64,000 bases of DNA from an uncultured Actinomycetes bacterium (GTDB lineage: Bacteria; Actinomycetota; Thermoleophilia; UBA2241): the NCBI GenBank assembly GCA_963767005.1, contig CAVYCN010000004.1, positions 64,001-128,000 on the forward strand, written 5' to 3'. Under the pieces are notes generated by a model. That model was not told the DNA's origin. It saw only the letters and a program-made list of their open reading frames with translations, and did not search any database. A program made the translations under genes and the position numbers. This document shows positions 37,443 through 61,717 of this stretch, piece by piece (position 1 is the first letter of the stretch; every line of letters starts with the position of its first letter).

Positions 37443-38271
37443 TCACGCGTCGTAGGGCGGCAGCTTGAGGATGCGGCGCGCCTCGTCGGGCGTGGCGGCG
37501 TCGCGGTCCCACTCCTTCGCAAGACGCGCGACGCGCCCCACGAGCTCGGCGTTCTCCTTGGCGAGGACGCCCTTGTGCAGGAAGATGTTGTCCTCGAAGC
37601 CGAGGCGCACGTTGCCGCCCAGGGCGAGGGCGGTCATGGTTATCGCCATGTGCCAGCGGCCGATGCCGGTGCAGGTCCAGGTCGAGCCCGCGGGCAGCCG
37701 GTCCACCAGGAAGGCGAGGTTGCGCGGCTCGCCGCTCATCGAGCCCGGCACGCCGAGCACGAAGTCCCAGTGGGTGAGCGGCCCGGCCGGGCCGTACTTC
37801 TTGACCAGCTTCAGCGCGTTGTCGATCTGGCCCGCCTCGAAGATCTCGAACTCGGGGCGGACGCCCTTGGCCTGCATGCGCTGGTAGAACTCGCTCATCA
37901 GGGCGGTGTCGTTGAAGAACACGTCGTCGCCGAAGTTGGCCGTGCCGGTGGTCAGCGACGCCATCTCGGGACCGAGCTCGAGCGGCTGCAGGCGCTCGTC
38001 GGCGGTCATGCCCATGGCACCGCCGGTCGAGGTCTGGATGATGATGTCGGTGCGCTTGCGGATCTCCTCGATGGCGGCCGCGAAGACCTCCTTTGCCTGC
38101 GTCGGAGCGCCGGTCGCGTCGCGCACGTGCAGGTGGAACATGGCCGCACCGGCCTCGCGGCAGCGGGACGGCGTCGGCGCCGATCTCGACGGCGCTGACC
38201 GGCAGCGCCGGCTGCGCCTCTTTCGTCGTCTCGGCGCCCACGCCGGCGACGGTGATGATCAGCTTCTCCAT
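37443..38271 (-). pseudogene. kce: 3-keto-5-aminohexanoate cleavage enzyme (BKACE/DUF849), split by a +1 frameshift near 38166 (real or assembly error)
   Basis: N-terminus MEKLIITVAGVGAETTKEAQPALP in one frame; RCREAGAAMFHLHVRD, QTSTGG, GGNVRLGFEDN in the other; one extra C in GTC-C-CGC. Confidence 0.85.
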
Positions 38272-38351
38272 CGGACCCTCTCTCAGGTCGTCGGTGTGCG
38301 CGCGGCGGCGACGATCCCCTCCACCCGCGCCTCCTCGCGTTCAGGCGGCCG

Positions 38352-39623
38352 CTACCGCTTCCAGGGATGCGACGCGGCCACGCAGGCGAGCGACTCCTCG
38401 ACCACGTCGAGGGCGCGCGTCAGGTCGGCCTCGGTGTGGCGGTAGCAGATGTACCAGTGGTGGTAGGGCTGCACGAACAGGCCGCGCCGGATGCACTGCG
38501 TGTAAAACTCGGTGCGGCGCTCCTTGTAGTGGTCGTCGACGTGGTCGAAGGTGAGGAACGGCATCGGCGGGATCCCGCTCCTGGTGACCGGCACGCCCGA
38601 GGCGTCGACGATCGCGCCGAGCCGCTCGAGGAACCGCGTGCCGCGCTCCCAGATCGCGTCCTGCACCTTCTCGCGCTCGAGGATGTCGAGGCACTTCATG
38701 CTGGCCGCCATCTCGAGGCTGTTGGGGAAGTACGTCGAGCTCAGGAAGGCGTCCTTCACGTAGACGCTCATGACCTCGCGCTTGCCGACCAGGGCGGCGA
38801 TCGAGTAGCCGTTGGCCATCGCCTTGCCGACGGTCGTCAGGTCGGGCGTCACGCCGTAGCGCTCGCTCGCGCCGCCCATCGACACGCGAAAACCGGTACG
38901 GATCTCGTCGAAGGTGAGCACCGCGCCGTTGGCGTGCGTGAGCTCCTTGACGGCCTCGAGATAGCCCGGCGGGGGGGCCATGACGGGCTTGGCCATGGGG
39001 TGTCCGACCGGGGTGACGATGACGCCGGCCACCTTGCCGGGGTTCTCGGCGAAGACGCGCTCGAGATCGGCGATGTCGCCGTACTCGAACTCCTTGGTGA
39101 GCTCCCAGACGGCCTGCGGCACGCCGCCGTGATGCTCGACGCACCAGTCGCCCCAGCCGTGGTAGCCGCAGCGCGCGACGACTTCGCGGCCGGTGAAGGC
39201 GCGCATGGCGCGCACGGCGGCGTTGGTGGCGTCGGAACCGGTCTTCACGAGGATCGTCTGCTCGCCGCAGGGCATGATGTCGGCGAGGCGCTGCTCGAGC
39301 TCGTTCTGCAGCGGCTGCACCAGGCTGAAGCAGAAACCCTTGTCCATCTGTGCCTTGGCGGCGTCGTTGATCTCGGGCTCGACGTAGCCGAGGATGATCG
39401 GCCCGTAGGCGCAGAGCATGTCGATGTACTCGTTGCCGTCGACGTCGAAGATATGGCCGCCCTCGCCGTGAGTGATGAAGACCGGGTATTCGCCGATCAC
39501 GAAGTTGTAGGGCCGGCGGATGCCGCCGACGCCGCCCGGGGTAAGGCGTTGCGCGTCGTCGAGCATCGACATCGACTTCGCGAGGTTCAGCTTGGGCGCG
39601 CTCTGCACGGATCGTGTGGTCAT
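38352..39623 (-). CDS. kat: 3-aminobutyryl-CoA aminotransferase (class III, HemL-like)
   Basis: PGGVGGIRRPYNFV.GEYP, CAYGPII, KGFCFSL, KTGSDAT, GYHGW, DEIRTGFR, GKAMANG, FVQPYHH..ICYRHT match my recollection of Cloacimonas Kat; adjacent to kce. Confidence 0.82.
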   Translation of the reverse strand: MTTRSVQSAPKLNLAKSMSMLDDAQRLTPGGVGGIRRPYNFVIGEYPVFITHGEGGHIFDVDGNEYIDMLCAYGPIILGYVEPEINDAAKAQMDKGFCFSLVQPLQNELEQRLADIMPCGEQTILVKTGSDATNAAVRAMRAFTGREVVARCGYHGWGDWCVEHHGGVPQAVWELTKEFEYGDIADLERVFAENPGKVAGVIVTPVGHPMAKPVMAPPPGYLEAVKELTHANGAVLTFDEIRTGFRVSMGGASERYGVTPDLTTVGKAMANGYSIAALVGKREVMSVYVKDAFLSSTYFPNSLEMAASMKCLDILEREKVQDAIWERGTRFLERLGAIVDASGVPVTRSGIPPMPFLTFDHVDDHYKERRTEFYTQCIRRGLFVQPYHHWYICYRHTEADLTRALDVVEESLACVAASHPWKR

Positions 39624-39872: not shown

Positions 39873-40808
39873 TCACGCCGGCGCCGTCCCGTCGGCGACC
39901 GCGTCGCGCTCGCCGAAGAGCACGACGAGCAGGCCCGCCAGGATGATGAGCGCGCCGCCCACGATGGTCCAGGTCGCCGGCCGCTGGCCGAGCAGCAGCA
40001 GGGCGTAGAGCGGGGCGCTCACCGGCTCGAGGTAGCCGAGGATCGAGGAGTGCTGCACGCGGATGCGGCTCACGCCCTCGGTCCACAGGGTGTAGGCGAG
40101 GGCCGTGCAGACCAGGCCGAGCAGGACGCCGATCAGCAGGTCGTGGCCGGACAGGGAGCGGCCGGCGCCCACCGTCTGCCACAGCGCGAGCGGCAGCAGG
40201 ACGACGGCGTCGATCACCATCTCGCTGATCACGATGGTGACGGCGCCGACGCCGCGATCGGTCAGGTCCTTGACGACGAGCTGGAAGGTGGCGTAGCCGA
40301 TGCCCGACACCGTGCCGGCCGCGAGACCGACCGTCGATACGCGCACGCCCTGCCCGAGGACGCCCGGCACGAGGATCGTCACGAGGCCGGCGAGGGCGAC
40401 CGCAAGCGCTACGTAGACCAGTGGCTCGGTGCGGACGTGGAGCAGGCGCGGCGCGGCGAGCGCCACGTACACGGGCGCCGCGAACTCGAGGAACATGCCG
40501 ATCGAGACGTTCGTGTCGCGCAGCGCGACGAAGAAGAGTAGCAGCGTGGCCGCGTCGACCAGACCCATGAGGAGCAGGCGCGGCGCGATCCCGGGACGTC
40601 GCACGCCGGCGAGCGGCCGGCGGCGCGCGAAGACGGCGCCCAGCACGACGCCGGCCGTCGCGAAGCGCACCACGAGCAGCGCGCTCTCGGGGGCGGTCGT
40701 CGAGTCGACGAGCGCCCCGATCGCCCCCATGATCAGGTACGACACACCGACCAGAGCGTAGCCGCGCAGGGCGTTGCGACGGGCCGTGACGGCGGTGTCC
40801 GGCGTCAT
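39873..40808 (-). CDS. EamA/DMT family transporter
   Basis: 10 TM; VQHSSILGYLEPVSAP; ATG 40808. Confidence 0.88.
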   Translation of the reverse strand: MTPDTAVTARRNALRGYALVGVSYLIMGAIGALVDSTTAPESALLVVRFATAGVVLGAVFARRRPLAGVRRPGIAPRLLLMGLVDAATLLLFFVALRDTNVSIGMFLEFAAPVYVALAAPRLLHVRTEPLVYVALAVALAGLVTILVPGVLGQGVRVSTVGLAAGTVSGIGYATFQLVVKDLTDRGVGAVTIVISEMVIDAVVLLPLALWQTVGAGRSLSGHDLLIGVLLGLVCTALAYTLWTEGVSRIRVQHSSILGYLEPVSAPLYALLLLGQRPATWTIVGGALIILAGLLVVLFGERDAVADGTAPA

Positions 40809-41731
40809 GGGTCGCCGGCCTCGACCGGCGCGGCCGTAGCGGGAGCGACGTCGCTCTCGCCCGCGCCGAAGCGCACTACGATCACGCCGGCGCCGATGAT
40901 GAGGACGCCGCCGGCGACGGTCCACAGCGACGGCACCTGGCTCAGGAAGACCAGGGCGTAGATGGGCGCGCTCACCGGCTCGACGTAGCCGATGATGCCG
41001 GAGTGCTGCACCTTGATGAAGCGCATGCCGTCCATCACCAGGCTGAAGGCGAGCGCCGTGCAGACGACGCCGAGATAGGCGGCGATGCCGAAGTTGCGCA
41101 GCGTGAAGTCGGCCGCCGGCGTCTGCAGCAGACCCAGCGGCAGCAGCACGGCGGCGGCCAGCACGCTCATCGCGAACACGATGGTCGTGGCGTGGACCTC
41201 GCGGCGCCGGAGCTGTTTGCCGCCGATCAGGTAGATCGAGTACATGACGCCGGCGAGCGTGGCGAAGAAGAGGCCGTAGGGCGTGAGCCGTACGCTTTCG
41301 CCGGTAAGGCCGGGCACCAGGATGAGGGCCATGCCGGCCAGGCCGACGCCGACGGCGGCGTAGACCGCGCCCTCGGTGCGCCCGCCCTCCAGGTGCGGAG
41401 CGACGAAGGCGATGTAGAGCGGCGCCAGGTACGACAGGAAGATGGCGACCGCGACGCCCGTCTGGCGGATGGCGATGAAGTAGCTCACGAGGTTCACCGC
41501 GAGGGCGACGCCCAGGATCAGCAGGCGCACGGTCGTGCCGCGGTCGGCGACCAGAGTGCGAAAGTCGCGACGCACGGCGACGACGACGCCCAGGACGAGG
41601 GCGGCGAACAGCATGCGCACCGCGACGAGCATGACCGAGGGCATGGTCGCGTAGGTCACGAAGACACCGATCGAGCCGTTGATGAGTCCGGCCGTGAGGG
41701 TCTCGCCATAGCCGCGCAGACGGTGGCTCAC
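40805..41731 (-). CDS. EamA/DMT family transporter
   Basis: 10 TM; VQHSGIIGYVEPVSAP; GTGA overlap. Confidence 0.88.
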   Translation of the reverse strand: MSHRLRGYGETLTAGLINGSIGVFVTYATMPSVMLVAVRMLFAALVLGVVVAVRRDFRTLVADRGTTVRLLILGVALAVNLVSYFIAIRQTGVAVAIFLSYLAPLYIAFVAPHLEGGRTEGAVYAAVGVGLAGMALILVPGLTGESVRLTPYGLFFATLAGVMYSIYLIGGKQLRRREVHATTIVFAMSVLAAAVLLPLGLLQTPAADFTLRNFGIAAYLGVVCTALAFSLVMDGMRFIKVQHSGIIGYVEPVSAPIYALVFLSQVPSLWTVAGGVLIIGAGVIVVRFGAGESDVAPATAAPVEAGDP

Positions 41732-42654
41732 GCCGGCACCTCGGTCTCGGCCCTGCCCAGCGCGATGGCCAGGGCGCCGGCCGCGATAATCAAAGCGCCG
41801 CCGAGCCAGGTTGTGAGCGGCGGCCGCTCGGCGACCAGCAGGAGCGCCCACACCGGTGCCGTGACCGGCTCGAGGTAGCCGAGTATGCCGGCGTGCTCGA
41901 CCGGAACGAAGCGCAGGCCGTCCGTGAACAGGCTGAAGCACAGGGCTGTGTAGACGAGGCCCATCACGGCGACGATGGCCACGTCGCCGCCGGTGAGCCG
42001 GTAGTGGCCGGCGGCCGTCTGCCAGACCGCGATCGGCAGGATCAGCACGACCGAGCACACGCAGTAGAACAGGGTGTACGTGGTGCCGCGGATCCCCTCG
42101 CCCAGACCCTTGACCTGCAGGAGGGCGGCGGCGTAGCAGCCCCCGGCGACGAGGCCGCAGACTATGCCCGGCAGCACGTGCGATGAGCCGGCCAGCGTGA
42201 GCGTCGGCACGACGATCAACGCCATGCCGGCAACGGCGAGGACGATCGCCGCCGTGTCGCTGCGCTCGCGTCTGGTATGCAGCACCCAGGGCGCGACGAT
42301 CACGATGTAGACGGGCGCCATGTACTCGAGGGCGATGCCGATGGCCACGCCGGCCAGGCGGATCGCGGCGAAGTAGAAGAGCATCTCGCAGGCCACCGTG
42401 CAGCCGACCAGCACCAGGCGCCACGGGTGTCCCAAGCGGCGCACCTCGGCGACGCCGCCGGTGAGCAGGAACAGCGGCCCGAGCACGAGGCCGGCGAGCG
42501 CCATGCGCAGCACGAGCAGCAGGCTGGCCGGCGCGTGAGAGATCATGAGGAGCGCACCCGACGTGCCCAGGATCAGGGAGGCGCCGCCGATCTCGGCGTA
42601 GCCGCGCAGGCGGCGGCGCGCGCCGGCCGACAGCGGGACCGAGTCGATGGTCAT
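41728..42654 (-). CDS. EamA/DMT family transporter
   Basis: 10 TM; VEHAGILGYLEPVTAP; ATG 42654. Confidence 0.88.
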   Translation of the reverse strand: MTIDSVPLSAGARRRLRGYAEIGGASLILGTSGALLMISHAPASLLLVLRMALAGLVLGPLFLLTGGVAEVRRLGHPWRLVLVGCTVACEMLFYFAAIRLAGVAIGIALEYMAPVYIVIVAPWVLHTRRERSDTAAIVLAVAGMALIVVPTLTLAGSSHVLPGIVCGLVAGGCYAAALLQVKGLGEGIRGTTYTLFYCVCSVVLILPIAVWQTAAGHYRLTGGDVAIVAVMGLVYTALCFSLFTDGLRFVPVEHAGILGYLEPVTAPVWALLLVAERPPLTTWLGGALIIAAGALAIALGRAETEVPA

Positions 42655-42677
42655 GCGCGACCCCCTACGGCCGGCGG

Positions 42678-44462
42678 TCAGGAGAAGCCGAGCTCGGCGG
42701 TGAAGACCTCGTGGAACTGGCGGTCGGTGGCCAGGTCGAGGAACTCGATGCGGCGCGCGAGCTCGCTCATGGCGCGCCGCTCCTCGACGTCGATGAGCGC
42801 CATCTGCGCGCCCACGCCGGCGGCGTTGCCGACGAAGGCGATGCGCTCGCGCGGCACGTCGGGCAGCAGGCCGATGGCGAGCGCGTTGTCGACGTCGAGC
42901 TCGTTGCCGAAGGCGCCGGCCACCAGGACCTGGTCGAGCCCGGCGGGCTCGAGCCCGGCGTGGGCGAGCAGCAGCCTGCAGCCGCTGGCGATCGCCGCCT
43001 TGGCGAGCTGCAGCGAGCGCACGTCGTGCTGCGTGAAGACGATGTCGCCCTGCGGCCCCGTCGCGAGGACGTATTCGAGGCCCGGCCCGCTGTCGCTCGA
43101 GCGCACGCGGGCGTGCGGCTGCAGGCGACCGCTGGCGTCGACCACGCCGGCCGCCACGAGGCCGGCCAGCAGGTCGACCACGCCGGATCCGCAGATGCCG
43201 AGCGGCTCGCGCCCGCCGATCGCGCGCACGTCGCGCGGCTCGCCGTCGGGGCCCAGCGAGACGCGCTCGATCGCGCCCTCGACGGCCTTCACGCCGCAAC
43301 TGATCTGGTAGCCCTCGAAGGCCGGGCCCGAGGCGCAGCTCGTGACGATCACTCGACCCTCGTGGACCAGGGCGATCTCGGTGTTGGTGCCGATGTCAAT
43401 CGCGAGGCGGGGCGTCGTCGACTGGGCCAGGCGAGTGGCGGCGATCACGGCCAGACAGTCCGAGCCGACGAAGCCGGCGATCGGCGGCGGAAAGTGGACG
43501 CCGCCCTCGGGGTTCATGGCGAAGCCGAGCTCGGCGGCGCGCAGGGTGAGCGGCGCGGCGGTGGCCGGCGCGAAGGGCGCTGCGCCGAGACCGACGGCCG
43601 ACAGCCCCAGGGCCAGATGGTGCATGGCCGTGTTGCCCACGAGGGTCATGTCGTAGAGGTGACGCGGGGCGATCGCCTGGCGTGCGCAGAGCGTCGCGAG
43701 CAGCTTGTTGACGCCACCGCGCGCGGCGCGCCGCAGGTCGTCGAGACGGCCGTCATGGATCGCCTGGGTGAGACGGGTGACGACGTCCTCGCCGAAGCGC
43801 ATCTGCGGGTTCTCGAGCGCCTCCTGGTCGATCTGCCGCCCGCTCTCGAGGTCGAACAGGTAGGCGATGATCTTGGAGGTGCCGACGTCGACGGCCACGC
43901 CGAAGGCGGGGCCGTCGACGTCGGCCGTCTCGACGTCGACCGGGCGGCCTTCGTAGCGCGTCACGACGGCCTGGTAGCCGCCCGCGCGCAGCGTCGCGGG
44001 CAGGGTGCGGGTCACGCCGAGCGGCAGGTCGTAGTCGCCCAGGACGGCGAGCAGCCGCTCGCGGTCGGCGCGCGCGTCGGCGAGCGTCGGCGGCTCGAGG
44101 GTCACGACCTCGCGCGCGACCGCCGGATGCGGCTCGCCGGGGTGCAGGCGCGACGTCGTCAGGATCTGGCGGCGGCCCTGGGTGGCCCGTACCTCGATGC
44201 TCACCCGCTCGGAGAGCGGCACGGTCTGGCAGGCGAGCCGCCAGCCCTGCGCGAGGCGGCTCGCGGGCACCTTGCCGCGCTCGATCTCGGTGGGCTCGCT
44301 GAAGCTGCCGGCGCCGGTGCGCACCAGGCACTTGCCGCACGTGCCGCGGCCGGCGCAGTCGACGGGCACGTCGACGGCGCCGCTCGTGACGACGGCGAGC
44401 AGCGACTCGCCGTCTTCGATCTCGACGGTCACGCCGATGGGCTCGACGAACACCTTGGTCAC
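42678..44462 (-). CDS. RACo/RamA-type ATP-dependent corrinoid reductive activator (2Fe-2S + ASKHA)
   Basis: CAGRGTCGKC...RLACQ; VDVGT, NPQMRFGEDVVTR, GNTAMHHL, GFVGSD, DIGTNTE, CASGPAFEG, GICGSG, LAKAAI, AGAFG. Confidence 0.9.
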   Translation of the reverse strand: MTKVFVEPIGVTVEIEDGESLLAVVTSGAVDVPVDCAGRGTCGKCLVRTGAGSFSEPTEIERGKVPASRLAQGWRLACQTVPLSERVSIEVRATQGRRQILTTSRLHPGEPHPAVAREVVTLEPPTLADARADRERLLAVLGDYDLPLGVTRTLPATLRAGGYQAVVTRYEGRPVDVETADVDGPAFGVAVDVGTSKIIAYLFDLESGRQIDQEALENPQMRFGEDVVTRLTQAIHDGRLDDLRRAARGGVNKLLATLCARQAIAPRHLYDMTLVGNTAMHHLALGLSAVGLGAAPFAPATAAPLTLRAAELGFAMNPEGGVHFPPPIAGFVGSDCLAVIAATRLAQSTTPRLAIDIGTNTEIALVHEGRVIVTSCASGPAFEGYQISCGVKAVEGAIERVSLGPDGEPRDVRAIGGREPLGICGSGVVDLLAGLVAAGVVDASGRLQPHARVRSSDSGPGLEYVLATGPQGDIVFTQHDVRSLQLAKAAIASGCRLLLAHAGLEPAGLDQVLVAGAFGNELDVDNALAIGLLPDVPRERIAFVGNAAGVGAQMALIDVEERRAMSELARRIEFLDLATDRQFHEVFTAELGFS

Positions 44463-44483
44463 GTCTGTCTCTCCGGGTCGACG

Positions 44484-44516
44484 CGGCGGGCGGCGGCCCG
44501 CGGCCGCCGCCCGCCG
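44484..44516. terminator. Perfect GC hairpin between kamA and the RACo gene (terminator or mRNA stabiliser)
   Basis: cggcgggcggcggcc-cgc-ggccgccgcccgccg, 15-bp stem, no U-tract. Confidence 0.45.
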
Positions 44517-44571
44517 TCTGCTTGTCTCGGGCGCGCCGGCCGAGCGGCGCAGCCTCGCGGGCTCCTGCGGG

Positions 44572-45858
44572 CTAGTCCTGCATGCGCGCCTTGCGGTCGG
44601 CGATCTTCTTCAGGCGCGCGTCCCAGACCTCGCTGAGCGTCGGGCCGTGATCGTCGTACATGCCGGCCACTCCGAGGCGCTGGCGCTCGGCCGCGCAGTC
44701 GGGGCAGTGGCACTCGGGCTCGACGTAGTCGTCGGGCTCGGTGTACTTGCTGATGACGCCCTCGTAGTTGCGCAGGATCACGTGGCCCGGAGCCTGCGAG
44801 ATCATGTACTGCGGCATGACCGGCGTCTTCCCGCCGCCGCCGACCGCGTCGATGATGTAGGTCGGCACCGCGAAGCCCGAGGTGTGGCCGCGCAGGCTCT
44901 CGGCGATCTCGATGCCCTTGGCCACGCTGGTGCGAAAGTGCGACGTGCCCTCGGCGAGGTCGCACTGGTAGAAGTAGTAGGGCCGCACGCGCGCCATCAC
45001 GAGCTTGTGGACGAGGCGCTTCATGACGTTGGCGCAGTCGTTGACACCGCGCATGAGCACCGTCTGGTTGCCGAGCGGGATGCCGGCGTCGGCCAGCATG
45101 GCGCACGCTCGGATGGAGTCTTCGGTGAACTCCTTGGGATGGTTGAAGTGCGTGTTCAGGAAGAGCGGATGGTACTTCTTGAGCATCGCGCAGAGCTCGG
45201 GGGTCACGCGCTGCGGGCAGACCACCGGTACGCGCGAGCCGATGCGCACGACCTCGACGTGGTCGATCGCGCGCACGCGGGCGATGATCTCCTCGAGCTT
45301 GTCGTCGGCGAGCACGAGCGGATCGCCGCCCGACAGCAGCACGTCGCGCACCTCGGGCGAGCGCTCGATGTACTTGATCGCATTGTCGAGCTCGGCCTGG
45401 GGGACGGCCTGCTCGTGGCTGCCCACGTGGCGCCGCCGGGTGCAGTGCCGGCAGTACATGGAGCACATCTCGGTGACGGTGAACAGCACGCGGTCGGGAT
45501 AGCGATGCGTGATGTGCGGCGTGGGCGAATCGACATCTTCGGAGACGGAGTCCTTGAGGTCTTCGGGGCGCACGACGAGCTCGGCCGACGTCGGCACGGC
45601 CTGCATGCGCACGGGGTCGTGCGGGTCGTCGGGGTCGATCAGCGAGGCGTAGTAGGGCGTGACCGACACGCGGAACTTGCCCATGCAGGCTTCGAGGTCG
45701 GCGCGCTGCTCGGGCGTGAGGTTCAGCACCTGCTCGAAGTCGGCGACCGTGGTCAGCCGGTTGGCCAGCTGCCAGTGGTAGTCGTTCCACTGCGCGTCGG
45801 TCACGTCGTTGAAGCGCGGGATGTCTTTCCAGTGTCGCGGTGTCGTCTGCACGGTCAT
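44572..45858 (-). CDS. kamA: Lysine 2,3-aminomutase (radical SAM/PLP)
   Basis: THRYPDRVLF, CSMYCRHCTRRR, LSGGDPL, THFNHP, GHTSG, GGGGKTP, LRNYEG, C-terminal CHCPDC; SD GAGGAGGAG before ATG 45858. Confidence 0.93.
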   Translation of the reverse strand: MTVQTTPRHWKDIPRFNDVTDAQWNDYHWQLANRLTTVADFEQVLNLTPEQRADLEACMGKFRVSVTPYYASLIDPDDPHDPVRMQAVPTSAELVVRPEDLKDSVSEDVDSPTPHITHRYPDRVLFTVTEMCSMYCRHCTRRRHVGSHEQAVPQAELDNAIKYIERSPEVRDVLLSGGDPLVLADDKLEEIIARVRAIDHVEVVRIGSRVPVVCPQRVTPELCAMLKKYHPLFLNTHFNHPKEFTEDSIRACAMLADAGIPLGNQTVLMRGVNDCANVMKRLVHKLVMARVRPYYFYQCDLAEGTSHFRTSVAKGIEIAESLRGHTSGFAVPTYIIDAVGGGGKTPVMPQYMISQAPGHVILRNYEGVISKYTEPDDYVEPECHCPDCAAERQRLGVAGMYDDHGPTLSEVWDARLKKIADRKARMQD

Positions 45859-45994
45859 GTCGTCTCCTCCTCGCGGCGCCCCCCCGGCGATCCGCACGTC
45901 GTCTTGCGTCGCCGTCCGGCCCCTGGCGAGAGGGACCGCCCGGCCGCGGCCGCCGCCTGCGCGGTGGCCGCCAGGTGCTGATCAGGTCGCACGA

Positions 45995-47347
45995 TCACAA
46001 CCCCGCCGTTGCGATGATACGCCGAAGCGTCTCCAGCTTCTCCCGGCCGAGTGGCGGCGCCTCGTGGCCGGCGACGAGCTCGCCGGCCAGCGCCGCGGCG
46101 CGCTCGGCCGCGCCGGGCCGGCCCTCGCGGCGCCAGGCCTCGTAGGGACTGCGGTCGAACAGCCGCGGACGCCACACGTCCTTCATGTGACGCCGCGTGT
46201 GGCGCTGGGCGAGGGCGTTGCCGCCGATGCCGACCGCGGCGATCGTGTCGAGCGCCATGGTCTCGTCGTCGACGGCGATGCCGGCGGCGACCGCCGTCAC
46301 GTTCGACCATGTCTCGGCGTCGAGCACGAGCTGGGCCGGTGAATACACCGTGCCGCCGTCGGTGTGGCCGGCGGCGGCCATGAGCGCAGCGCCGCCCAGG
46401 GCGGCGGCGAGCGCGAACGCCGTACCGTCGGCGGCCGACAGCCACTCGTCGGCGGCGGGACGCGTCGGCGGAAAACCGGCCGCGAGCGGCAGGCCGGCGT
46501 AGGCCGCGAGCTGGCAGAGACCGGCGAGCGTGGCGACGCCGGCCGGCCCCAGGCCAAAGCCCGGCGCGTGCTCCTCGACCGCCGCCGGCAGGGCCGGCAC
46601 GATGAAGGCCGAGCCGGGCGCCGCGAGCTGCTGGACGGCGCAGGCGGCCAGGGCCGCGGCGTGCACGGCGACAAGGGCCTCGCCGGGCGTGGCCGGCGGC
46701 TCGTCGAGGACCGGCTGCGCAAAGCAGCCGCACGGCAGACCGGCGCGCGCGCAGGCGAGCAGCGGGTCGAGATCACGCTGCTCGCGGCTGTGCACCACGA
46801 CGCCGAGCGGCGGCGGCGACCCCGGCTCGCGCCCACCGAGCGCCGCCGCGACGGCGATCACCGCGCCGGCCTGGGCCGCGCTCATGGCGCCGCAGACCAG
46901 CACCGGCCTGGCGGTGGCCTCGAGGGCGGCGGGCAGCTCGGCGAGACGGCGCGTCGGCACGCCGACGACGGCGACCTCGGGCAGGGCGTCGGCGAGCAGA
47001 GCGGCCGCGCCGACGTCGGCGGCGGCGGCGGTGGCGGCCATCAGGCCGCCACCGCCGCCGCCGAACGCCACGTCGCGGTCGGGTGTGCGGCCGGGCAGCA
47101 CGAACGACGCGGGCGCGCGGCCGGCGGCCTCGCGCGTGAGGGCGACGGGCAGGCGCGCGCGGCCGGCGGCGCGGTCGACGGTCGCGCCGGCCTGCTCGAG
47201 CAGGGCCAGCGCCGTTTCACCAGCGACTGCCACGCCGTGGCCCTCGAGCAGCTCGAGGGCCGCGTCGTGCAGGGCGGCGGCGTCGGCCAGTGGGGCGTGG
47301 TGCAGCGGCGGGCTCGACGGCGGCTCCGGTGTGGCGGCATCAGGCAT
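45995..47347 (-). CDS. MttB-superfamily methyltransferase, strongly diverged
   Basis: LHDAALELLEGHGV, AGRAPASFVLPGR; C-terminal ALDTIAAVGIGGNAL..HTRRHMKDVWRP; Ala-rich, shortened core. Confidence 0.7.
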   Translation of the reverse strand: MPDAATPEPPSSPPLHHAPLADAAALHDAALELLEGHGVAVAGETALALLEQAGATVDRAAGRARLPVALTREAAGRAPASFVLPGRTPDRDVAFGGGGGGLMAATAAAADVGAAALLADALPEVAVVGVPTRRLAELPAALEATARPVLVCGAMSAAQAGAVIAVAAALGGREPGSPPPLGVVVHSREQRDLDPLLACARAGLPCGCFAQPVLDEPPATPGEALVAVHAAALAACAVQQLAAPGSAFIVPALPAAVEEHAPGFGLGPAGVATLAGLCQLAAYAGLPLAAGFPPTRPAADEWLSAADGTAFALAAALGGAALMAAAGHTDGGTVYSPAQLVLDAETWSNVTAVAAGIAVDDETMALDTIAAVGIGGNALAQRHTRRHMKDVWRPRLFDRSPYEAWRREGRPGAAERAAALAGELVAGHEAPPLGREKLETLRRIIATAGL

Positions 47348-48749
47348 GGACCCTCCTCTCGGCGGCGTGCACGACCTCGGCGGTCGCGCGCCGCGTGGCG
47401 TCGTCGGGCGTGAAGGCCGGCGGCTCGCGTCGCAGGCTCTCCGTGCGAGCGCGCACGCGCTCCTTCAGCGTGGTCGCGCCCTCGGCCCGCCAGTGCTCGA
47501 ACTCGCCGCGCTCGAACAGCGCCGGCGCCCAGACGTCGGCGCCGTGCTCGCGGGTGTGGGCGAGGTCGGCGAAGCTGCCGCCGGGACCGACGGCCGCGAT
47601 CTCGTCGAGCGCGAGCGCGCGGCGGTCCGAACCGACGTCGTGCATGAGCGCGCGGGCGTACGAGACGAGCTCGTGGCCGAGCACGATGGTCTCGAACGAG
47701 CTCTGCCGCCCGGCCTCGAGGTAGCCCACGTCGTGCAGCAGGGTGGCCCGCGACAGGGCGCCCAGCACGGCCGAGATGGCCGCCTCGGCGGCCCACTGCT
47801 CGTCGAGCAGCTTGGCGTCGGACACCGCGGCGTAGGCGAAGCTCGGCAGCCCGTAGAAGTGGCAGAGGTCGCACGCGGCGGCGTTGCCCAGGTAGTGCTC
47901 GGGCGCGCCGAAGGCCTCGATCGCGGTGCGCGGATCAGCGGTGCCGCAGCCGACGCCCAGCACGAAGGGCGCGCCGGGCGCGACGAGCTGGTGCAGGACG
48001 AGCGCCGACAGCACCTCGGCGTTGCCGACCAGCACCGTGCCGGCGACGCTCACCGGCGCGCTCACGCCGGCCACGGGCGCCGGCGCGTACACGAGCGGGA
48101 TGCCTTCGACGGCGCAGGCCTGGATCTGGCGCAGGGCCGCGGCGGTGTGGCCGAGCGGCGGCGCCGAAAGCGCGTAGCAGGCGAAGCTCGCCGGCTCGCC
48201 GGCGAGGCCGGCGAGCTCGCGCATGAGCGGCAGCGAGCCGGCGTCGCGGGCGGTCGCCAGGAGCGGCTTGCGCGTGCCGGAGCACATGGCCGCGAAACGC
48301 GCCACGTCGCCTGTGGCCGCCGGCACGTCGGCCGGCAGGCCCATCGACATGACGAAGTCGATGCCGGGGAGGAGCTCGCAGAGGGCCGCCATGCCCTCGA
48401 CGTCGGCGCTCGTCGCCGGGCGGCGCTCGCCGCTGTCGGGGTCGCACACGTAGGCGCAGTCGGGACCGGTCCCGAACCAGCTCCGGCCGTCGGCCACCTC
48501 GATGCCGCTCGCGGCGGGGTCGCGTGAAGCCACGGTGCAGCGTCGCGGCGCGGCGGCGAGGGCCTCGCCGACGAGCGCCGCCGGCAGGCGCACGCGGTCG
48601 CCGTCGACGAGCGCGCCGGCGCCGGCGAGCAGCGCCCGCGCCGGCTCCCAGGGCATGTCGACGCCGGTCTCCTCGAGCAGGGCGAGGGTCGCCTCGTGGA
48701 CCTGCCAGCAGGCGTCGTCGTCCCAGACCACGAGGCGGGCGCCGGTCAC
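47340..48749 (-). CDS. Non-pyrrolysine MttB-superfamily corrinoid methyltransferase
   Basis: VHEATLALLEETGV, FGTGPDC, GNAEVLSAL, SDAKLLDEQ, LLHDVGYL, VGPGGSF; no in-frame TAG. Confidence 0.88.
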   Translation of the reverse strand: MTGARLVVWDDDACWQVHEATLALLEETGVDMPWEPARALLAGAGALVDGDRVRLPAALVGEALAAAPRRCTVASRDPAASGIEVADGRSWFGTGPDCAYVCDPDSGERRPATSADVEGMAALCELLPGIDFVMSMGLPADVPAATGDVARFAAMCSGTRKPLLATARDAGSLPLMRELAGLAGEPASFACYALSAPPLGHTAAALRQIQACAVEGIPLVYAPAPVAGVSAPVSVAGTVLVGNAEVLSALVLHQLVAPGAPFVLGVGCGTADPRTAIEAFGAPEHYLGNAAACDLCHFYGLPSFAYAAVSDAKLLDEQWAAEAAISAVLGALSRATLLHDVGYLEAGRQSSFETIVLGHELVSYARALMHDVGSDRRALALDEIAAVGPGGSFADLAHTREHGADVWAPALFERGEFEHWRAEGATTLKERVRARTESLRREPPAFTPDDATRRATAEVVHAAERRVHA

Positions 48750-50209
48750 GGAGCGGCGAGCTCCGCGTCGGCGCGCGCCACGATATGAGCGAGCTCGGCG
48801 GCGACGTCGTCGGGCAGCGGCTCGGGCCGGTGGTTGGCCAGGATGTCGTCGGCCGTCTCGGTCGCCCGCTCAAGGGCGCCCTTGCGGCCACCGGCGACCC
48901 AGACGTCGTAAGGCGTGCGGTCCCAGACCGCCGGGCGCCAGATCTCCTTCATGTGCTGCCGCGTGTGCTTCTCGGCGAGATAGGTGCCGTTGGGACCCAC
49001 CCTGGCGATCAGGTCGACCGCCAGCGTGTCGTCGTCGACGACCACGCCGCCGGCCACCTTCTGCACGATGCGATAGATCTCGGTCTCCATCACCATGTGC
49101 GGGTAGCTCAGGATCTTGGAGCCGTTCAGCAGGCCGCAGCCGTTCATCATGTCGGCGCCGGTCATGACGCTGGCGAAGGTCGACAGGGAGTCGTCGACCG
49201 CGGCCTGCCAGTCGGGCTCCTTGGCGCTCGTCGCCATCGTGCCCATGGCCATCGGCACGCCGTAGAAGTGAGCGAGCTGGGTGGCGCCGGCGGCCAGCAG
49301 GTAGTCCTCGGGGCCGGCCGTGTAGCCGCCGGTCTTCAGGTCCATGCAGCTCGGCGCGCCCGAGAAGAAGGCCGGGCAGCCCGGCCAGGCGAGCTCGAGC
49401 AGGACCACGCCCGACAGCGCCTCGGCGTTCTGCACGACGAGGTTGCCGGCCAGAGTGGCCGGCCCGGTGCCGGCCATCAGCGGCATGGGCATGAAGCCGC
49501 TCGCCAGGCCGTGCTCGGCGGCCACCAGGTTGGCCTCGAGGTTGGGACCGTCGTGGCCGAGGGGGTCGACGGCGCACTGCATGAAGCTGATGATGGGACG
49601 CTTGCGCAGCTCGGCGGTGCCACCGACGATGGCGGCCGCCATCTCGACGAGCAGCCGTGCCGGCCGCTCGCCCACCGTCGTCACGGCCTGGTAGTGCTTC
49701 GTCGTGTTGGTGAGCACGGCCTCGGAGTCGTGCAGCGCCTTGCTCGCCGGCGGCACGTCCTGCGAGGTGACGACCGGACCCCAGTAGTAGCTCACGTCGG
49801 GCAGGGCGTCGACGAAGCGCGCCGAGGTGGCGGCGTCGGCCTTCGTCGAGGGCCGCTTCTCGCCGGTGTGGTGGTCGTAGACGAAGACGCCGCTGCCGTC
49901 GTTGGACAGATAGCAGTGGCGCCGGTCGATCACGAGGTCGCAGGCGGGGTCGCGACCGGCCAGCACATAGCTGTCGGGCACCCGGCTCACGGCGTCCATG
50001 ACGACGGCGCGCGGCAGCCTGACGATCGCGGTCGCCCGGTCGACCCTGCAACCGTTGCTCTCGAGGACGTCGAGCGCCTTGTCGGAAGGGAAGCGCACGC
50101 CGGTCGTCTCGAGCACGTCGAGCGTGGCCTCGTGGATGCGCTCGAGGTCGTCGCTCGACAGGACGTCCCAGCCGAGACGGGGGGTGATGGGATTGATCCG
50201 GGGGCTCAT
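48746..50209 (-). CDS. Non-pyrrolysine MttB-superfamily corrinoid methyltransferase
   Basis: IHEATLDVLETTGV, PATLAGNLVVQNAEAL, MDLKTG, SAKEPDWQA, VGPNGTYL. Confidence 0.92.
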   Translation of the reverse strand: MSPRINPITPRLGWDVLSSDDLERIHEATLDVLETTGVRFPSDKALDVLESNGCRVDRATAIVRLPRAVVMDAVSRVPDSYVLAGRDPACDLVIDRRHCYLSNDGSGVFVYDHHTGEKRPSTKADAATSARFVDALPDVSYYWGPVVTSQDVPPASKALHDSEAVLTNTTKHYQAVTTVGERPARLLVEMAAAIVGGTAELRKRPIISFMQCAVDPLGHDGPNLEANLVAAEHGLASGFMPMPLMAGTGPATLAGNLVVQNAEALSGVVLLELAWPGCPAFFSGAPSCMDLKTGGYTAGPEDYLLAAGATQLAHFYGVPMAMGTMATSAKEPDWQAAVDDSLSTFASVMTGADMMNGCGLLNGSKILSYPHMVMETEIYRIVQKVAGGVVVDDDTLAVDLIARVGPNGTYLAEKHTRQHMKEIWRPAVWDRTPYDVWVAGGRKGALERATETADDILANHRPEPLPDDVAAELAHIVARADAELAAP

Positions 50210-50265
50210 GGGCGGCGACCTCGCAGGTTCGCGGAAGGGGCCTGAAGCGTGGGGCGTCGGCCGGT

Positions 50266-50363
50266 CCGACTAGGCGTGCGACGGCGTCACACGCGCCTAG
50301 GCGATGACGACGGAGTCGATCATCGGCACGAGGCGCGCAGCGAAGCCACGCACGCCTGGGCGG
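50266..50363. repeat. Dispersed, diverged, inverted copy of the 59-bp REP-like element
   Basis: Minus strand cgcccaggcgtgcgtggcttcgctgcgcgcctcgtgccgatgatcgactccgtcgtcatcgcctaggcgcgtgtgacgccgtcgcacgcctagtcgg aligns to the 34961 unit plus the next hairpin. Confidence 0.85.
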
Positions 50364-50511
50364 CGACGGCGAGGCCGATCGCCGGCACTACAGGCCGGAC
50401 GTGCGGCAGATGGCGATGATGGAGGCCGCTGGCACCCGCCGAGTCTATCAGACGCCCGCTGGAAGCGGCGACCGGTCGGGACGCGCGGCGCCACTCCGCG
50501 GACCCGGGCCT

Positions 50512-51981
50512 TCAGGCCAGCTCGCGGTCGGCCCGCGTCACGAGCTCGTCGAGGGCGGCGGCGGTGACGGCCGGCAGAGGCTCGGCGTGGTGGCCGGCCA
50601 GGATGCCGGCGGCGATGTCGGCCGCCGCGTCGCGAGCGCCGCGCCGGCCACCGTCGACCCAGGCGTCGTAGGGCGCGCGGTCCCACACCAGGGGGCGCCA
50701 GATCTCGGGCGCGTGGCGCCGGGTGTGGCGGTCGGCGAGGAAGGTGCCGCCGGGGCCGACGCGGTCGATGACGTCGAGGGCGAGCGCCTCGGCGTCGACC
50801 GTGACGCCCTCGGCCAGGCGCCGCACGATGCGGTAGACCTCGGTCTCCATGATCAAATGGGGATACGACAGGGTCCGGGAGCCGTCGAGCAGGCCGCAAC
50901 CGCTCATCATGTCGGCGCCGGCCAGCACCGAAGCCGCGGTCGAGAGGGCGTCGTCGACGGCCGCCTGCCAGCCCGGCTCCTTGGCGCCGGTGGCCATGGT
51001 GCCCATGTTGACCGGCAAGCCGAACGAGCGGCCGAGCTGGGTCGCTGCGGCCGCGAGGACGTCGTCCTCGGGGCCGCCGCCCGTGTACCCGCCGGTGCGC
51101 AGGTCCATGACGCTCGGCGCGCCGGCGAAGAACACCGGCGCGCCGGGGCTTGCGAGCTCGAGCAGCACGAGGTCGGCGAGCACGGTGGCGGCGTTGACCA
51201 CGAGGTTGCCGGCCAGCGTGGCCGGCGCGGTGCCGCAGCCCAGGGTGAGCGAAAGAAAGCCGCAGGGCACGCCGGCGGCGGCGCAGACGAGGCCGGCCTC
51301 GAGGCTCACCGCATCGTTGCCGAGCGGGTCGACCGGGCAGGCGATCAGGCTCACGAGCGGCCGGCGGCGCAACTCGTCGCGGCCGCCGCTCAGGGTGGCG
51401 GCCATCTCGACGAGCAGCCCGGTCGGCCGCTCCCCGACGCAGGTCACCGCCTGGTAGTGCTTGGTCGTGTTGGCGAGCACGGCCGCGGCTTCGTGCAGCG
51501 CGCGCGACGCGACGGGCGCGTCGCCGCCGGCGACGATCGGCCCCCAGCAGAACGCGACCTCGGGCAGCGCGTCACAGAAGCGCGCCGCATCGGCGACGTC
51601 GGCCAGAGTCGAGGGGCGCCGCTCGCCGCTTGCGGGGTCGACGACGGCGACGCCGCTCGCGTCGTTGGACAGGTAGCAGTGACGGCCGTCGAGCGGCAGG
51701 TCGCACGACGGGTCGCGCGCGCAGAGCGTGACGTCGCGGGGCGCGGCCGCGAGGGCCGACTCGACGAGCGGCTGCGGCAGGCGGGCGACCTCACGCCCGC
51801 GATCGACCGCGGCACCGTGCGCCTCGAGGACGTCGAGCGCACGCGCCAGCGGGAAGCGCACGCCGACGTCGGCCAGGACGGTGAAGATCGCCTCGCGCAG
51901 GCGGTCGAGGTCGCCCGCCGACAGGACCTCCCAGCGGCGGGCCGGGGCGATCGGCGCGATTCTGGGCGCGTTGCCGCTCAC
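50512..51981 (-). CDS. Non-pyrrolysine MttB-superfamily corrinoid methyltransferase
   Basis: Close paralog of 48746-50209 (HCYLSND, NTTKHYQAVT, PATLAGNLVV, GAKEPGWQA). Confidence 0.92.
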   Translation of the reverse strand: MSGNAPRIAPIAPARRWEVLSAGDLDRLREAIFTVLADVGVRFPLARALDVLEAHGAAVDRGREVARLPQPLVESALAAAPRDVTLCARDPSCDLPLDGRHCYLSNDASGVAVVDPASGERRPSTLADVADAARFCDALPEVAFCWGPIVAGGDAPVASRALHEAAAVLANTTKHYQAVTCVGERPTGLLVEMAATLSGGRDELRRRPLVSLIACPVDPLGNDAVSLEAGLVCAAAGVPCGFLSLTLGCGTAPATLAGNLVVNAATVLADLVLLELASPGAPVFFAGAPSVMDLRTGGYTGGGPEDDVLAAAATQLGRSFGLPVNMGTMATGAKEPGWQAAVDDALSTAASVLAGADMMSGCGLLDGSRTLSYPHLIMETEVYRIVRRLAEGVTVDAEALALDVIDRVGPGGTFLADRHTRRHAPEIWRPLVWDRAPYDAWVDGGRRGARDAAADIAAGILAGHHAEPLPAVTAAALDELVTRADRELA

Positions 51982-51982
51982 G

Positions 51983-52903
51983 CTACTGCGCCGGGTACGT
52001 GCCGGCCTTGAGCATGGCGAGCGCCTTCGTGAAGGTCGGCACGCCTGCCGGGCGCACGCTCACGTCGAGACCGTGGTACCAGCGCCGCGACAGGAGGGTG
52101 AGCTCGCCGCTCGCGCGCATGCTCCTGATGGCGCTGTCGAGCAGGGCGATGAGGTCGGCCTGGCCGGGCTGCACGGCGAAGGCCTCGGGCTGGTAGTAGA
52201 AGCCGGCGCCGGCGACCGTCACGGCGACGCCGCCGGCACGCATGGTCGCCGCCGTCGTGTCGGCCGTCATCGCGCCGGCCAGGCTGCCGTTGCCCACGTC
52301 GGCGACGGCGTCGGCGTCGGTCGTGTAGAGCTGGACCTGGACGCCGGTCGCCGCCTCGAGAAAGCGCTGGTAGGTGGTCGCGGCGCTCGCGCCGACGGCC
52401 TTGCCGGACAGTCCGGCCAGGGTCGTGATCGGCGTCGAGCCCGTCCGCACCAGGACCTGGGCCGCACTGTAGGTGTAGGGCGCCGTGAAGGCGAGTCCGC
52501 TCGCCGGCGCCGGGTCAGTGGCGATCGAGCTGATCGCCACGTCGTATTTCGCACCCTTGAGCGCCGCCGGCACGCGCGCCCAGTCGAGCTCGCGGATCTC
52601 GACGTCGACGTCGAGCAAGGTGGCCACCTGCTGCGCCACATCGACGTCGAAGCCGCTCCAGGCGCCCGTGGCGCCGACCGAGCTCTGTGGCGCGAACTCG
52701 GGGTCCTCGCCGACGACGAGGACGCCGCGCGCGGCGATCGTGGCGGCGAGCCCGGTCGGGCGGTGACCGAGGATCTGGGTGAACCGCTGGGCCGGCGTCT
52801 GGGCCGCGGCCTTGACGTGGCCGCCGCAACCCGCGAGGCCGACGACCAGCAGGGCCGCCACGACGGCGACCAGCGTCACGGCCGGCGCGCGGCCCGAGCT
52901 CAC
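51983..52903 (-). CDS. Polar amino-acid ABC transporter substrate-binding lipoprotein (SBP family 3)
   Basis: Lipobox LAGC; GFDVDVAQQVA, KYDVAISSI, FTAPY, MRASGELTLLSRRWY; GTGA overlap. Confidence 0.85.
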   Translation of the reverse strand: MSSGRAPAVTLVAVVAALLVVGLAGCGGHVKAAAQTPAQRFTQILGHRPTGLAATIAARGVLVVGEDPEFAPQSSVGATGAWSGFDVDVAQQVATLLDVDVEIRELDWARVPAALKGAKYDVAISSIATDPAPASGLAFTAPYTYSAAQVLVRTGSTPITTLAGLSGKAVGASAATTYQRFLEAATGVQVQLYTTDADAVADVGNGSLAGAMTADTTAATMRAGGVAVTVAGAGFYYQPEAFAVQPGQADLIALLDSAIRSMRASGELTLLSRRWYHGLDVSVRPAGVPTFTKALAMLKAGTYPAQ

Positions 52904-54237
52904 GCGAGGCCCGCCACCAGGCGCCGCAGCTCGGTGTCGAGACCGGGCTCGAGCGGCGGCGGCACATGGCTCGCGAGGATCTCGCGGGCGCGCTCGCGGG
53001 CGGCGGCGCGGGCGTCGTCGCCGAACGCGCGCAGCCCGCCCGCCACCTGCCGGGCCGCGCCGGCGGCGCCGGCCGCCGAGGTCACGGCGGCGGCGCGGGC
53101 TGCCGCCCGCGCCGCCGCCGTGACCTCGGTCCCCAGGACCAGCTCCTCGAACGAGAAGATGCGACCGCCGGCGACCATGCCGACCCCGGCCAGCATGTCG
53201 ACGCCGGCCAGCAGCGACAGGTACGTGGTCGTCACGTCGTCGATCACCGACTGCCAGCCCGGCAGCTTGGCCGCCGAGGCGTTCACGCCGCACTGGGTGG
53301 GCAGCCCGTAGAAGGCGCCGACGTTGCCGACGGCCGCGCCCATGAGCGTGTCCTCGGGCGCGCCGCCCGAGAAGTCGCCGGTGCGCAGGTCCATGACGCT
53401 CGGGATGAAGCAGACGAACACGGGGGCGCCGGGGAAGGCGGCCTGCACGGCGCAGACGCCCGACAGCGCCTCGGCGATGCCGACCACCAGCGAGCCGGCC
53501 ATCGTGATGGGGGTCGTCGAGCCACCTTGTGGCATGGTGACGAAGCCGATCGGCACGCCGGCCTGGGCGAACACCAGGGCGGCGGCGAGCGTGCCGTCGT
53601 CGTGGCCGAGCGGCGTGATCGTGCCGAGCAGGGCCGAGATCGGCGACGCGCGCCGCACGGCGCGCTCGCCGCCGGCGATGGCACGCGCCATCTCGACGGC
53701 GACGCTCGCCTGCTCGGCGTCGACGATGGTCACCGTCTGGGCGTGCTTGCCGGTGTTGGCGAGCACCTCGTAGATCTCATGCAGGCCGCGGCGCTCGACC
53801 GGACGGTCCTGGGCGCTCACCGTCGTCCAGCAGAAGTCGATCTCGTCGAGGGCGTCGACGATACGGGTGACGGCGGCGACGTCGGCGGCCGTGGTCGGCC
53901 GCTTGTCGCCCGTCTCTAAGTCGTAGATGTCGGTGGGGCAGCCGTCGGTCGTGAGCAGCGAGCGCGAGCCGGTGACCAGCGTGCGGTTGGCGCGCGCGCC
54001 CAGCGTCAGCCGCTCGGGCGCCTGGCCGACGAGCGCGCGCACGACGTCGGCCGGGATGCGCACGACCTGGCCCTCGGCCTGCGCGCCGGCCGCGACCAGG
54101 GCCGCCCTCGCCGGCAGGTACGGCACCGCGACGCCGACCGTGGAGAGCACGCGCAGGGCGGCCTCGTCGAGTCGCTCGAGGTCGCGCGCGGTCAGGACCT
54201 GGAGACGCGCCGGCGCGTCGGGTTCGGGCTGTCGCAC
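52900..54237 (-). CDS. Non-pyrrolysine MttB-superfamily methyltransferase with shortened C-terminal region
   Basis: LDEAALRVLSTVGV, PITMAGSL...AEALSG, MDLRTG, SAAKLPGWQ; SD AAGGAAGG. Confidence 0.85.
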   Translation of the reverse strand: MRQPEPDAPARLQVLTARDLERLDEAALRVLSTVGVAVPYLPARAALVAAGAQAEGQVVRIPADVVRALVGQAPERLTLGARANRTLVTGSRSLLTTDGCPTDIYDLETGDKRPTTAADVAAVTRIVDALDEIDFCWTTVSAQDRPVERRGLHEIYEVLANTGKHAQTVTIVDAEQASVAVEMARAIAGGERAVRRASPISALLGTITPLGHDDGTLAAALVFAQAGVPIGFVTMPQGGSTTPITMAGSLVVGIAEALSGVCAVQAAFPGAPVFVCFIPSVMDLRTGDFSGGAPEDTLMGAAVGNVGAFYGLPTQCGVNASAAKLPGWQSVIDDVTTTYLSLLAGVDMLAGVGMVAGGRIFSFEELVLGTEVTAAARAAARAAAVTSAAGAAGAARQVAGGLRAFGDDARAAARERAREILASHVPPPLEPGLDTELRRLVAGLA

Positions 54238-61354: not shown

Positions 61355-61423
61355 CCGCCTGCGGCGCCGCCCGGCGGCGGCGCTCCCACGACCGTGCGGA
61401 CCGGCCGGCAGCCCCCGCGCCGC

Positions 61424-61680: not shown

Positions 61681-61717
61681 GGTACCTCTACGGAGAGAGA
61701 GATAGTAAGGAGCCGGA

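Follow-up and report, generated by a model that had tools for sequence, protein, structure and literature searches.

A conserved block of MttB-family and lysine-fermentation genes in an uncultured Thermoleophilia bacterium and its possible role in methyl-lysine use

The gene block and its conservation

The 64,000-nucleotide stretch of DNA analysed here (the window) comes from an uncultured Actinomycetes bacterium of the Thermoleophilia (assembly GCA_963767005.1, contig CAVYCN010000004.1) and carries a block of MttB-family methyltransferase genes together with genes of lysine fermentation. The genome is denoted G000, the window being G000:C4:64001-128000, and other G and L numbers denote genomes and loci of relatives. 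Thirteen genes, all on the minus strand, run from position 54237 down to 37443 in the order mttB1-SBP-mttB2-mttB3-mttB4-mttB5-kamA-RACo-EamA x3-aminotransferase-kce (Table 1; SBP, solute-binding protein; Pyl, pyrrolysine), and stop and start codons abut or overlap at several junctions. Profile matches bear out every gene of this co-directional block, which had been described in a first-pass annotation made from the sequence alone; the start of kce was refined to 38271, outside the open reading frame used there. The five MttB genes match PF06253 with 157-312 bits (cut-off 25) and have no in-frame stop.

Table 1. Genes of the block, in the order of transcription (window coordinates)
Gene	Position	Strand	Assignment and remarks
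mttB1	52900..54237	-	non-Pyl MttB; PF06253 222 bits, profile positions 29-426 only
SBP	51983..52903	-	family 3 (polar amino acid) solute-binding lipoprotein, SBP_bac_3
mttB2	50512..51981	-	non-Pyl MttB; 61% identical to paralogue mttB3; patchy in relatives
mttB3	48746..50209	-	non-Pyl MttB; Bacillota orthologues linked to kamA, about 53% identical
mttB4	47340..48749	-	non-Pyl MttB of another clade; several paralogues elsewhere in G000; missing from many related loci
mttB5	45995..47347	-	MttB fold, decayed pocket, dimerisation loop kept; directly before kamA
kamA	44572..45858	-	lysine 2,3-aminomutase; sole G000 match at E<=1e-60
RACo	42678..44462	-	four-domain RACo/ASKHA corrinoid reductive activator; one copy in G000
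EamA/DMT transporter 1	41728..42654	-	profile match
EamA/DMT transporter 2	40805..41731	-	profile match
EamA/DMT transporter 3	39873..40808	-	profile match
aminotransferase	38352..39623	-	HemL-like class III; likely Kat (3-aminobutyryl-CoA aminotransferase)
kce	37443..38271	-	BKACE/Kce; frame change near 38170

The distance from the block to dnaA and dnaN (window 59876-62818), which probably mark the origin of replication, is about 5.6 kb, and the block has the same position in relatives. An Rfam scan of the window returned two tRNAs and nothing else, with no lysine riboswitch at threshold. No RNA record was listed for window 43000-52000, and the 16 DNA entries listed match small parts of it. 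No sigma-70-like promoters were found, terminator-like sites numbered 3 versus 1.9 expected, and neither a sigma-54-like nor a common motif was present in the 220-base stretches upstream of six genes, Bacillota promoters not being covered. Across the six sources scanned, the only other Rfam match was a PYLIS element in L182.

A single mttB beside kamA could be chance in G000 alone, since this genome has 38 mttB loci (41 matches; 7 loci with TAG in the Pyl motif). As a background, our own gene calls give 2931 predicted genes other than mttB, of which 54 have an mttB no more than 500 bp away and 219 have one no more than 5 kb away. The linkage that is kept across genomes is not chance. A genome scan gave 73 loci, mostly from one family, of which 64 hold an mttB3 orthologue (criterion, at least 68%); kamA follows within 5 kb downstream in 49 of these, the other 15 end too soon at a contig edge, and none is unlinked.

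In Bacillota, an mttB3 orthologue (bM3) is present in 21 of 121 relatives of G061, with kamA adjacent in 15, absent from the operon in one (G103) and not decidable in five. The usual order there is NhaC-family transporter, GNAT, kamA, bM3, corrinoid protein and a second MttB (bMx), and the GNAT protein (147-157 amino acids) has no NCBIfam match at E<=1e-15. At 13 kamA loci without bM3 (from about 26 such genomes), bMx directly follows kamA in 10 and no MttB is present in 3. G062, listed among the relatives of G061, has two MTTB matches in all, both inside its kamA operon. A Bacillota-wide sample (401 genomes, 12 matching, three candidates scored per genome) holds an mttB3-type gene in five, which adjoins kamA in four and, in an MttB pair, lies about 4 kb from kce-kal-kamE-kamD in one (L222). 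Three further genomes with the link come from this sample (L220, L233 with L221, and L222). The order at L220 is corrinoid-MttB-methyl-tetrahydrofolate (methyl-THF) transferase-kamA-MttB-corrinoid, which places the whole corrinoid methyl system except RACo in cis, and in L233 and L221 the order kamB-kamC-kamD-kamE-kdd-kal-kce-thiolase-...-kamA-MttB makes the MttB gene contiguous with the whole kam cluster. The metagenome contig L148 reads corrinoid-MttB-MttB-kamA-MttB. Gene orders differ between the two phyla, their KamA proteins are 52-58% identical, and Bacillota appear to have assembled a similar kamA-MttB-corrinoid block independently. The linkage from which the first-pass annotation had argued is hence not unique to G000, being kept in actinobacterial relatives and apparently rebuilt in Bacillota.

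Two sequences titled as other groups were not counted as independent: L067 (titled Deltaproteobacteria; 83% identical to mttB3) matches Thermoleophilia loci, and L072 (titled Desulfovibrio) matches Bacillota, its MttB being 88% identical to that of L071. Some MttB loci have other partners. In L223, L224:9194-13572, L225 and L226 the first gene of an operon encodes a bM2-type non-Pyl MttB and is joined by Pyl mtbB and Pyl mttB; three of these loci have a sigma-54 activator alongside. This MttB may work at a step before trimethylamine or use a different methylamine. In L229:7618-11891, L230 and L071:93-2815 the gene after an MttB is saccharopine/lysine-dehydrogenase-like and kamA is not adjacent; L229 and L230 also have an NhaC-family transporter. 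The dehydrogenase-like gene (best PDB match PH1688, E 3e-29) is a possible second lysine-catabolic partner. We take PH1688 to be a lysine 6-dehydrogenase, an identity for which a literature search gave no confirmation and which serves as a lead only. L090:1-8255, with an NhaC transporter, an M20 deacylase, an amidinotransferase-like gene, MttB, corrinoid protein and MttB, hints at a methyl-arginine variant.

Lysine fermentation, corrinoid supply and transport

The product of kamA scores 588.6 with TIGR03820 (cut-off 525.4), matches 2A5H at E 8e-170 and has R134, D293, D330, K337 and the CxxxCxxC motif, with roles that we take to be those of the 2A5H residues. It is a genuine lysine 2,3-aminomutase. 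AblA/AblB synthesize the osmolyte N-epsilon-acetyl-beta-lysine; a KamA beside a GNAT is found in the Bacillota version only, and unlike AblA/AblB the window block has no GNAT, no AblB-type acetyltransferase beside kamA and a catabolic context. Because the contigs of relatives are one base shorter than the window at 38170 in three of the four runs compared, the frameshift in the window copy of kce is probably an assembly error. An intact orthologue scores 378.4 with NF052387 (cut-off 382), the best family by far, and the best PDB match of Kce is 2Y7D (E 6e-79), with the 'GAET' Glu motif kept.

The gene that precedes kce in a kamA-kdd-...-kce cluster of Bacillota is 66% identical to the aminotransferase. 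G061 and G094 have kal, while none was detected in G000, G007 or G011. From its genomic context, where a HemL-like class III enzyme takes the place of kal among the lysine genes, the aminotransferase is likely to be Kat. The lysine-fermentation identity given earlier stands for kamA and is likely for kce and kat, and the pathway genes missed in the window are present elsewhere in G000: a second cluster at C4:159186-165226, 41 kb away from mttB1, comprises kamB, kamD, kamE and kdd (these four above NCBIfam cut-offs) as well as a thiolase gene, and a methyl-THF transferase and corrinoid proteins lie in trans. The Kat variant of 'Ca. Cloacamonas' has the same gene set (kamA, kamDE, kdd, kce and kat, no kal) and a HemL-like aminotransferase, as far as the accessible text of PMC3149608 goes; unlike that variant, G000 has the set divided between two clusters separated by 41 kb, one of them the methyltransferase block that contains kamA, kat and kce.

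The methyl-THF:corrinoid transferase is encoded at G000:C3:328992 (NF005719, 301 versus 259), and G000 has 23 B12-binding matches. The corrinoid gene found within related loci is closest to C3:160000 in 14 of 16 high-GC actinobacterial-type loci tested and travels with Pyl mttB. Corrinoid protein and methyl-THF transferase in trans, together with RACo in the block, would make up a complete system in G000. RACo occurs in one copy in G000, G016 and G018, and RamQ of E. limosum is described as a shared activator in the accessible part of PMC12155760. The first-pass annotation had taken RACo for the pathway's own corrinoid activator; an activator specific to the block MttBs was rejected, since the gene is single-copy and is kept beside kamA in G018, a genome without any MttB.

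In many relatives mttB1 is followed by genes for an SBP, a permease and an ATPase, whereas G000 has the SBP alone: the best match to the permease is 34% identical, and the SBP has lost the conserved Arg of its 'EER' motif. The proposed uptake through this SBP is therefore doubtful in G000. In the SBP family, the side-chain site retains one acidic and two aromatic residues, as in lysine/ornithine/arginine binders, with numbering and roles presumably as in LAO-type proteins. In the column of the 'VTD/ITD' Asp (4ZV1, 3VV5), which presumably binds the alpha-amino group, 45 of the 49 rows have Ala, two have Ser and two have Asp; repeated genomes are among these rows. A Wood-Ljungdahl sink is not supported, with no acetyl-CoA synthase match in G000, G011 or G018 (G013 and G061 have one). 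Since none was found, a cluster of CCG-domain, flavin/4Fe-4S, MvhD-like and NAD-binding Fe-S genes at window 13323-20333 is a possible electron sink; it resembles what we take to be HdrABC-MvhD-Flx.

Further genes of related function lie at other sites. G000:C3:236048-245240 (L247) holds a PylS C-terminal domain, PylC and PylD above cut-off, and tRNA-Pyl; C18 of G000 has four mtbB-like genes; and an ornithine fermentation cluster at G000:C2:206656-213646 (L250) has Ord, OrtB and OraE above cut-off and a racemase-like gene nearby. At G000:C19:116091-117418 and C10:37067-38566, one mttB seems split in two reading frames and one match has a TGA near its start. The window itself contains thiT and a thiamine diphosphokinase gene (57019-58370; no thiamine pyrophosphate riboswitch at the Rfam threshold) and, at 891-2138, a gene for a LOR/SDH-ArgZ-like domain protein of the ornithine-ammonia cycle type, adjoining another EamA and two M20 peptidases.

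Pockets and dimerisation loops of the MttB proteins

In a FastTree tree, mttB1, mttB2, mttB3 and mttB5 form one clade with Asp, Trp and Gln at pocket columns, and mttB4 belongs to another. A test for Pyl was negative: the five genes have no internal stop, their TIGR02369 scores of 174-462 bits compare with at least 525 required, and the Pyl site is Ala in mttB1-3. At the positions of Y97, R312, H348 and F356 of MtgB, mttB3 has Gly, Ala, Asn and Ser in a pairwise alignment to 9YCE, and in a multiple alignment the R312 column is Q in mttB1, N in mttB2, F/A in mttB4 and A in mttB5, both readings being alignment-based. R312 is conserved in all characterised MttB members acting on acidic quaternary amines, according to the accessible part of PMC13080624. 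Because the betaine residues of MtgB are absent, the known betaines are unlikely substrates of the block MttBs. The loss of R312 agrees with a substrate that carries its carboxylate at a distance from the methylated nitrogen, and a long chain could enter at the pyrrolysine position of MttB, with Asp/Trp holding the methylammonium group. The first-pass annotation was right to call the proteins non-Pyl MttBs (no Pyl, PF06253), but the activity on known betaines that it cited for such enzymes is not predicted here, judged from the lost MtgB residues.

The block resembles the systems of MtgB, MtpB, MtcB, MtyB and MthB with MtqC/MtqA/RamQ in the PF06253 fold, the lack of Pyl, the corrinoid protein and methyl-THF transferase in trans, one shared reductive activator and dozens of paralogues per genome (PMC13080624, PMC12155760, in their accessible parts). 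Unlike these systems, it has lost Y97/R312/H348/F356, is linked to lysine fermentation and includes one loop-less member and one with a decayed pocket. The best structural match is MttB-MttC of Methanosarcina barkeri (7XCL/7XCN), in which loop 396-452 of the partner subunit docks the corrinoid protein; this MttB is a homo-oligomer with Pyl334 and Tyr364 (PMC9842639, as far as accessible), whereas in the block the Pyl site is occupied by Ala in mttB1-3 and pocket and loop are seemingly split between two genes.

Mean column conservation in mttB3 is 0.91 for the barrel and 0.85 for the loop (37 sequences), and pocket and loop are both present. In mttB1 the values are 0.82 and 0.12 (19 sequences): the pocket is conserved, an Ala-rich bypass stands where the C-terminal dimerisation loop is expected, and a structural model has three helices in its place. 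In mttB5 they are 0.58 and 0.74 (47 sequences, frameshifted records depressing the barrel value), with 7% of columns at least 90% conserved and the longest conserved run at 373-409 (19-sequence alignment). The mttB5 model has the MttB fold (pLDDT 83.5, TM 0.74 to 7XCL), residues 357-383 being of low confidence as a single chain. A homodimer would carry pocket and loop in each subunit; mttB3 has both, and mttB1 and mttB5 each lack one. Since a homologue search at E<=1e-75 mostly gave mttB2/mttB3, mttB5 was identified by its position before kamA. Among 19 hand-picked relatives with both block ends readable, mttB1 and mttB5 occur together in 17 and neither occurs in one; at the remaining, frameshift-rich locus the script found mttB1 only, yet an mttB5 match was seen there in a separate search. 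The same relatives lack mttB3 in 4 of 19 cases, mttB5 of G024 lies at a contig end, and 19 of 22 family relatives have one copy of mttB1.

Because mttB1 has a pocket without the loop, mttB5 has the loop with a decayed pocket and the two genes occur jointly, we predict from conservation, co-occurrence and single-chain models that they form a heterodimer, in which mttB1 would be catalytic and mttB5 a non-catalytic partner. The prediction is based on a docking loop of the 7XCL/7XCN type. The block would then have at most four MttB active sites, and the 'five demethylases' of the first-pass annotation are not supported, as mttB5 looks non-catalytic; mttB2, mttB3 and mttB4 are moreover dispensable in relatives.

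A candidate route for methylated lysine and its rivals

The gene identities, the conserved linkage, the presence of the remaining pathway in G000 and the absence of the betaine motif are the observations from which we infer every substrate named below. As the best explanation, held tentatively and with slightly less than even confidence, we propose that the block MttBs demethylate N-epsilon-methyl-lysine, followed by fermentation of the Kat type. Demethylation would be needed because the pyridoxal phosphate (PLP)-dependent 5,6-aminomutase requires a free epsilon-amine. The substrate would be taken up by a basic-amino-acid ATP-binding cassette transporter (complete in relatives, an orphan SBP in G000) or by the EamA carriers. 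It would be demethylated by the predicted mttB1:mttB5 heterodimer, with the pocket from mttB1 and the loop of mttB5 docking the corrinoid protein, while mttB3/mttB2 may demethylate other methylation states; trimethyl-lysine, previously proposed to be demethylated stepwise, would be a substrate of this kind. A corrinoid protein encoded outside the block would receive the methyl groups, the methyl-THF transferase would pass them from methyl-Co(III) to THF, and RACo would re-reduce Co(II). The freed lysine could be fermented by KamA, Kce and likely Kat of the block with the distant KamBDE and Kdd, through beta-lysine, 3,5-diaminohexanoate and 3-keto-5-aminohexanoate to 3-aminobutyryl-CoA and acetoacetate, and then to acetoacetyl-CoA via Kat.

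We are more hesitant about the wider proposal of an anaerobic, corrinoid-dependent route of demethylation and fermentation of protein-derived methyl-lysines that was assembled at least twice in bacteria and whose core actinobacterial enzyme would be an obligate heterodimer, pairing a catalytic MttB that lacks the loop with a pocket-dead, corrinoid-docking MttB pseudoenzyme. To our knowledge, substrates are established for only a handful among thousands of non-Pyl MttBs, all of them small quaternary amines, and no MttB acting on methyl-lysine was found in the literature searched, which lay mostly outside subscription journals and supplements. Gut bacteria reportedly convert the same proposed substrate, trimethyl-lysine, to delta-valerobetaine (a role ascribed to DavB/DavA), a route that is said to keep the trimethylammonium group and to use no corrinoid chemistry.

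Several findings weigh against a common function of the MttB and lysine genes. In G018, a 94% complete genome without any MTTB match, the order SBP-racemase-kamA-RACo-EamA-kce is kept, and the lysine genes therefore do not depend on MttBs; another corrinoid protein and PylS are present there. A Pyl trimethylamine methyltransferase gene lies in the same region of 46 related loci and a Pyl dimethylamine methyltransferase gene (mtbB) in 8, so that the region also gathers unrelated methylamine genes. The MttB adjacent to kamA differs by phylum (mttB5/mttB1 versus bMx), and the bM2-like subgroup stands mostly beside Pyl mtbB/mttB (five genomes), with a saccharopine/lysine-dehydrogenase-like neighbour in three. 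Only 2 of 39 other metagenome loci contain kamA (L139, L148; many are shorter than 5 kb), and lysine genes are present in none of six regions (five genomes) of another actinobacterial family. The linkage is rare in the wider clade. Most of the genomes that show it come from two lineages and do not count as independent cases.

These observations bear on the main rival, which we consider unlikely, namely a mixed catabolic island in which MttBs for other N-methyl compounds (methylamines, methylated ornithine/arginine, polyamines) stand in the same region, or under the same promoter, as the lysine genes and the single RACo, without a common substrate. Such an island would account for G018 and for the Pyl genes, and also for the agmatine-deiminase-like genes of 11 clustered related loci and the racemase-like gene of 7, for the mtbB and corrinoid protein genes that adjoin the Bacillota operon in 6 of 10 kamA-bMx loci, for the many mttB loci of G000 and for a stable position close to dnaA. 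However, one MttB orthologue group adjoins kamA or the kam cluster in two phyla, despite the different gene orders and the distance between their KamA proteins, and a generic island is not expected to select the same subclade.

That the MttBs act on N-alpha-methylated lysine of the lysine betaine type, before KamA binds the alpha-amine to PLP, seems improbable. The linked gene is kamA, the step requiring a free alpha-amine, and the prevalent Ala at the 'VTD/ITD' position of the SBP would agree with a blocked alpha-amine, but in about half of the SBPs the next residue is an Asp, and a nearby conserved Glu could substitute. Also missing from the MttBs is R312, the residue that contacts the neighbouring carboxylate of betaine-type substrates, and N-alpha-methyl-lysines are rarer in nature. 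KamA could instead act first on N-epsilon-methyl-lysine, with the MttBs demethylating methyl-beta-lysine before KamDE. It is kamA and not kamDE that is co-located with MttBs, and Ile, Val or Leu replaces Pro332, two residues past the epsilon-amine ligand D330, in 58 of 59 KamA sequences of the GC-rich group (Thermoleophilia). We give this order of steps little credence, since the MttB-linked kamA of Bacillota retain Pro332 and the MttB operon of G103 has no kamA, a canonical kamA-kdd-...-kat-kce cluster lying elsewhere in that genome. A bypass through transamination of methyl-beta-lysine and its cleavage by Kce, giving a gamma-butyrobetaine-type CoA ester that would then be demethylated or deaminated, is very improbable, for although the lysine genes of the block are exactly kamA, an aminotransferase and kce, and Pyl trimethylamine and dimethylamine methyltransferases are often close by, Kce is nearest to canonical 2Y7D with its Glu motif, the aminotransferase matches the Kat-position gene of the canonical cluster, Kat requires a CoA thioester (PMC3149608, in its accessible part) and R312, used by MtyB, is absent.

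The block is a conserved and functionally suggestive operon and a variant of known MttB systems. Its linkage to lysine fermentation provides a short, testable substrate list for one MttB subclade. If function is split between mttB1 and mttB5, counts of mttB genes would overcount enzymes, and a loop-less MttB expressed alone may seem inactive. Demethylation of N-epsilon-methyl-lysine by these enzymes, if true, would explain how protein-derived methyl-lysines are recycled without oxygen and without the release of trimethylamine.

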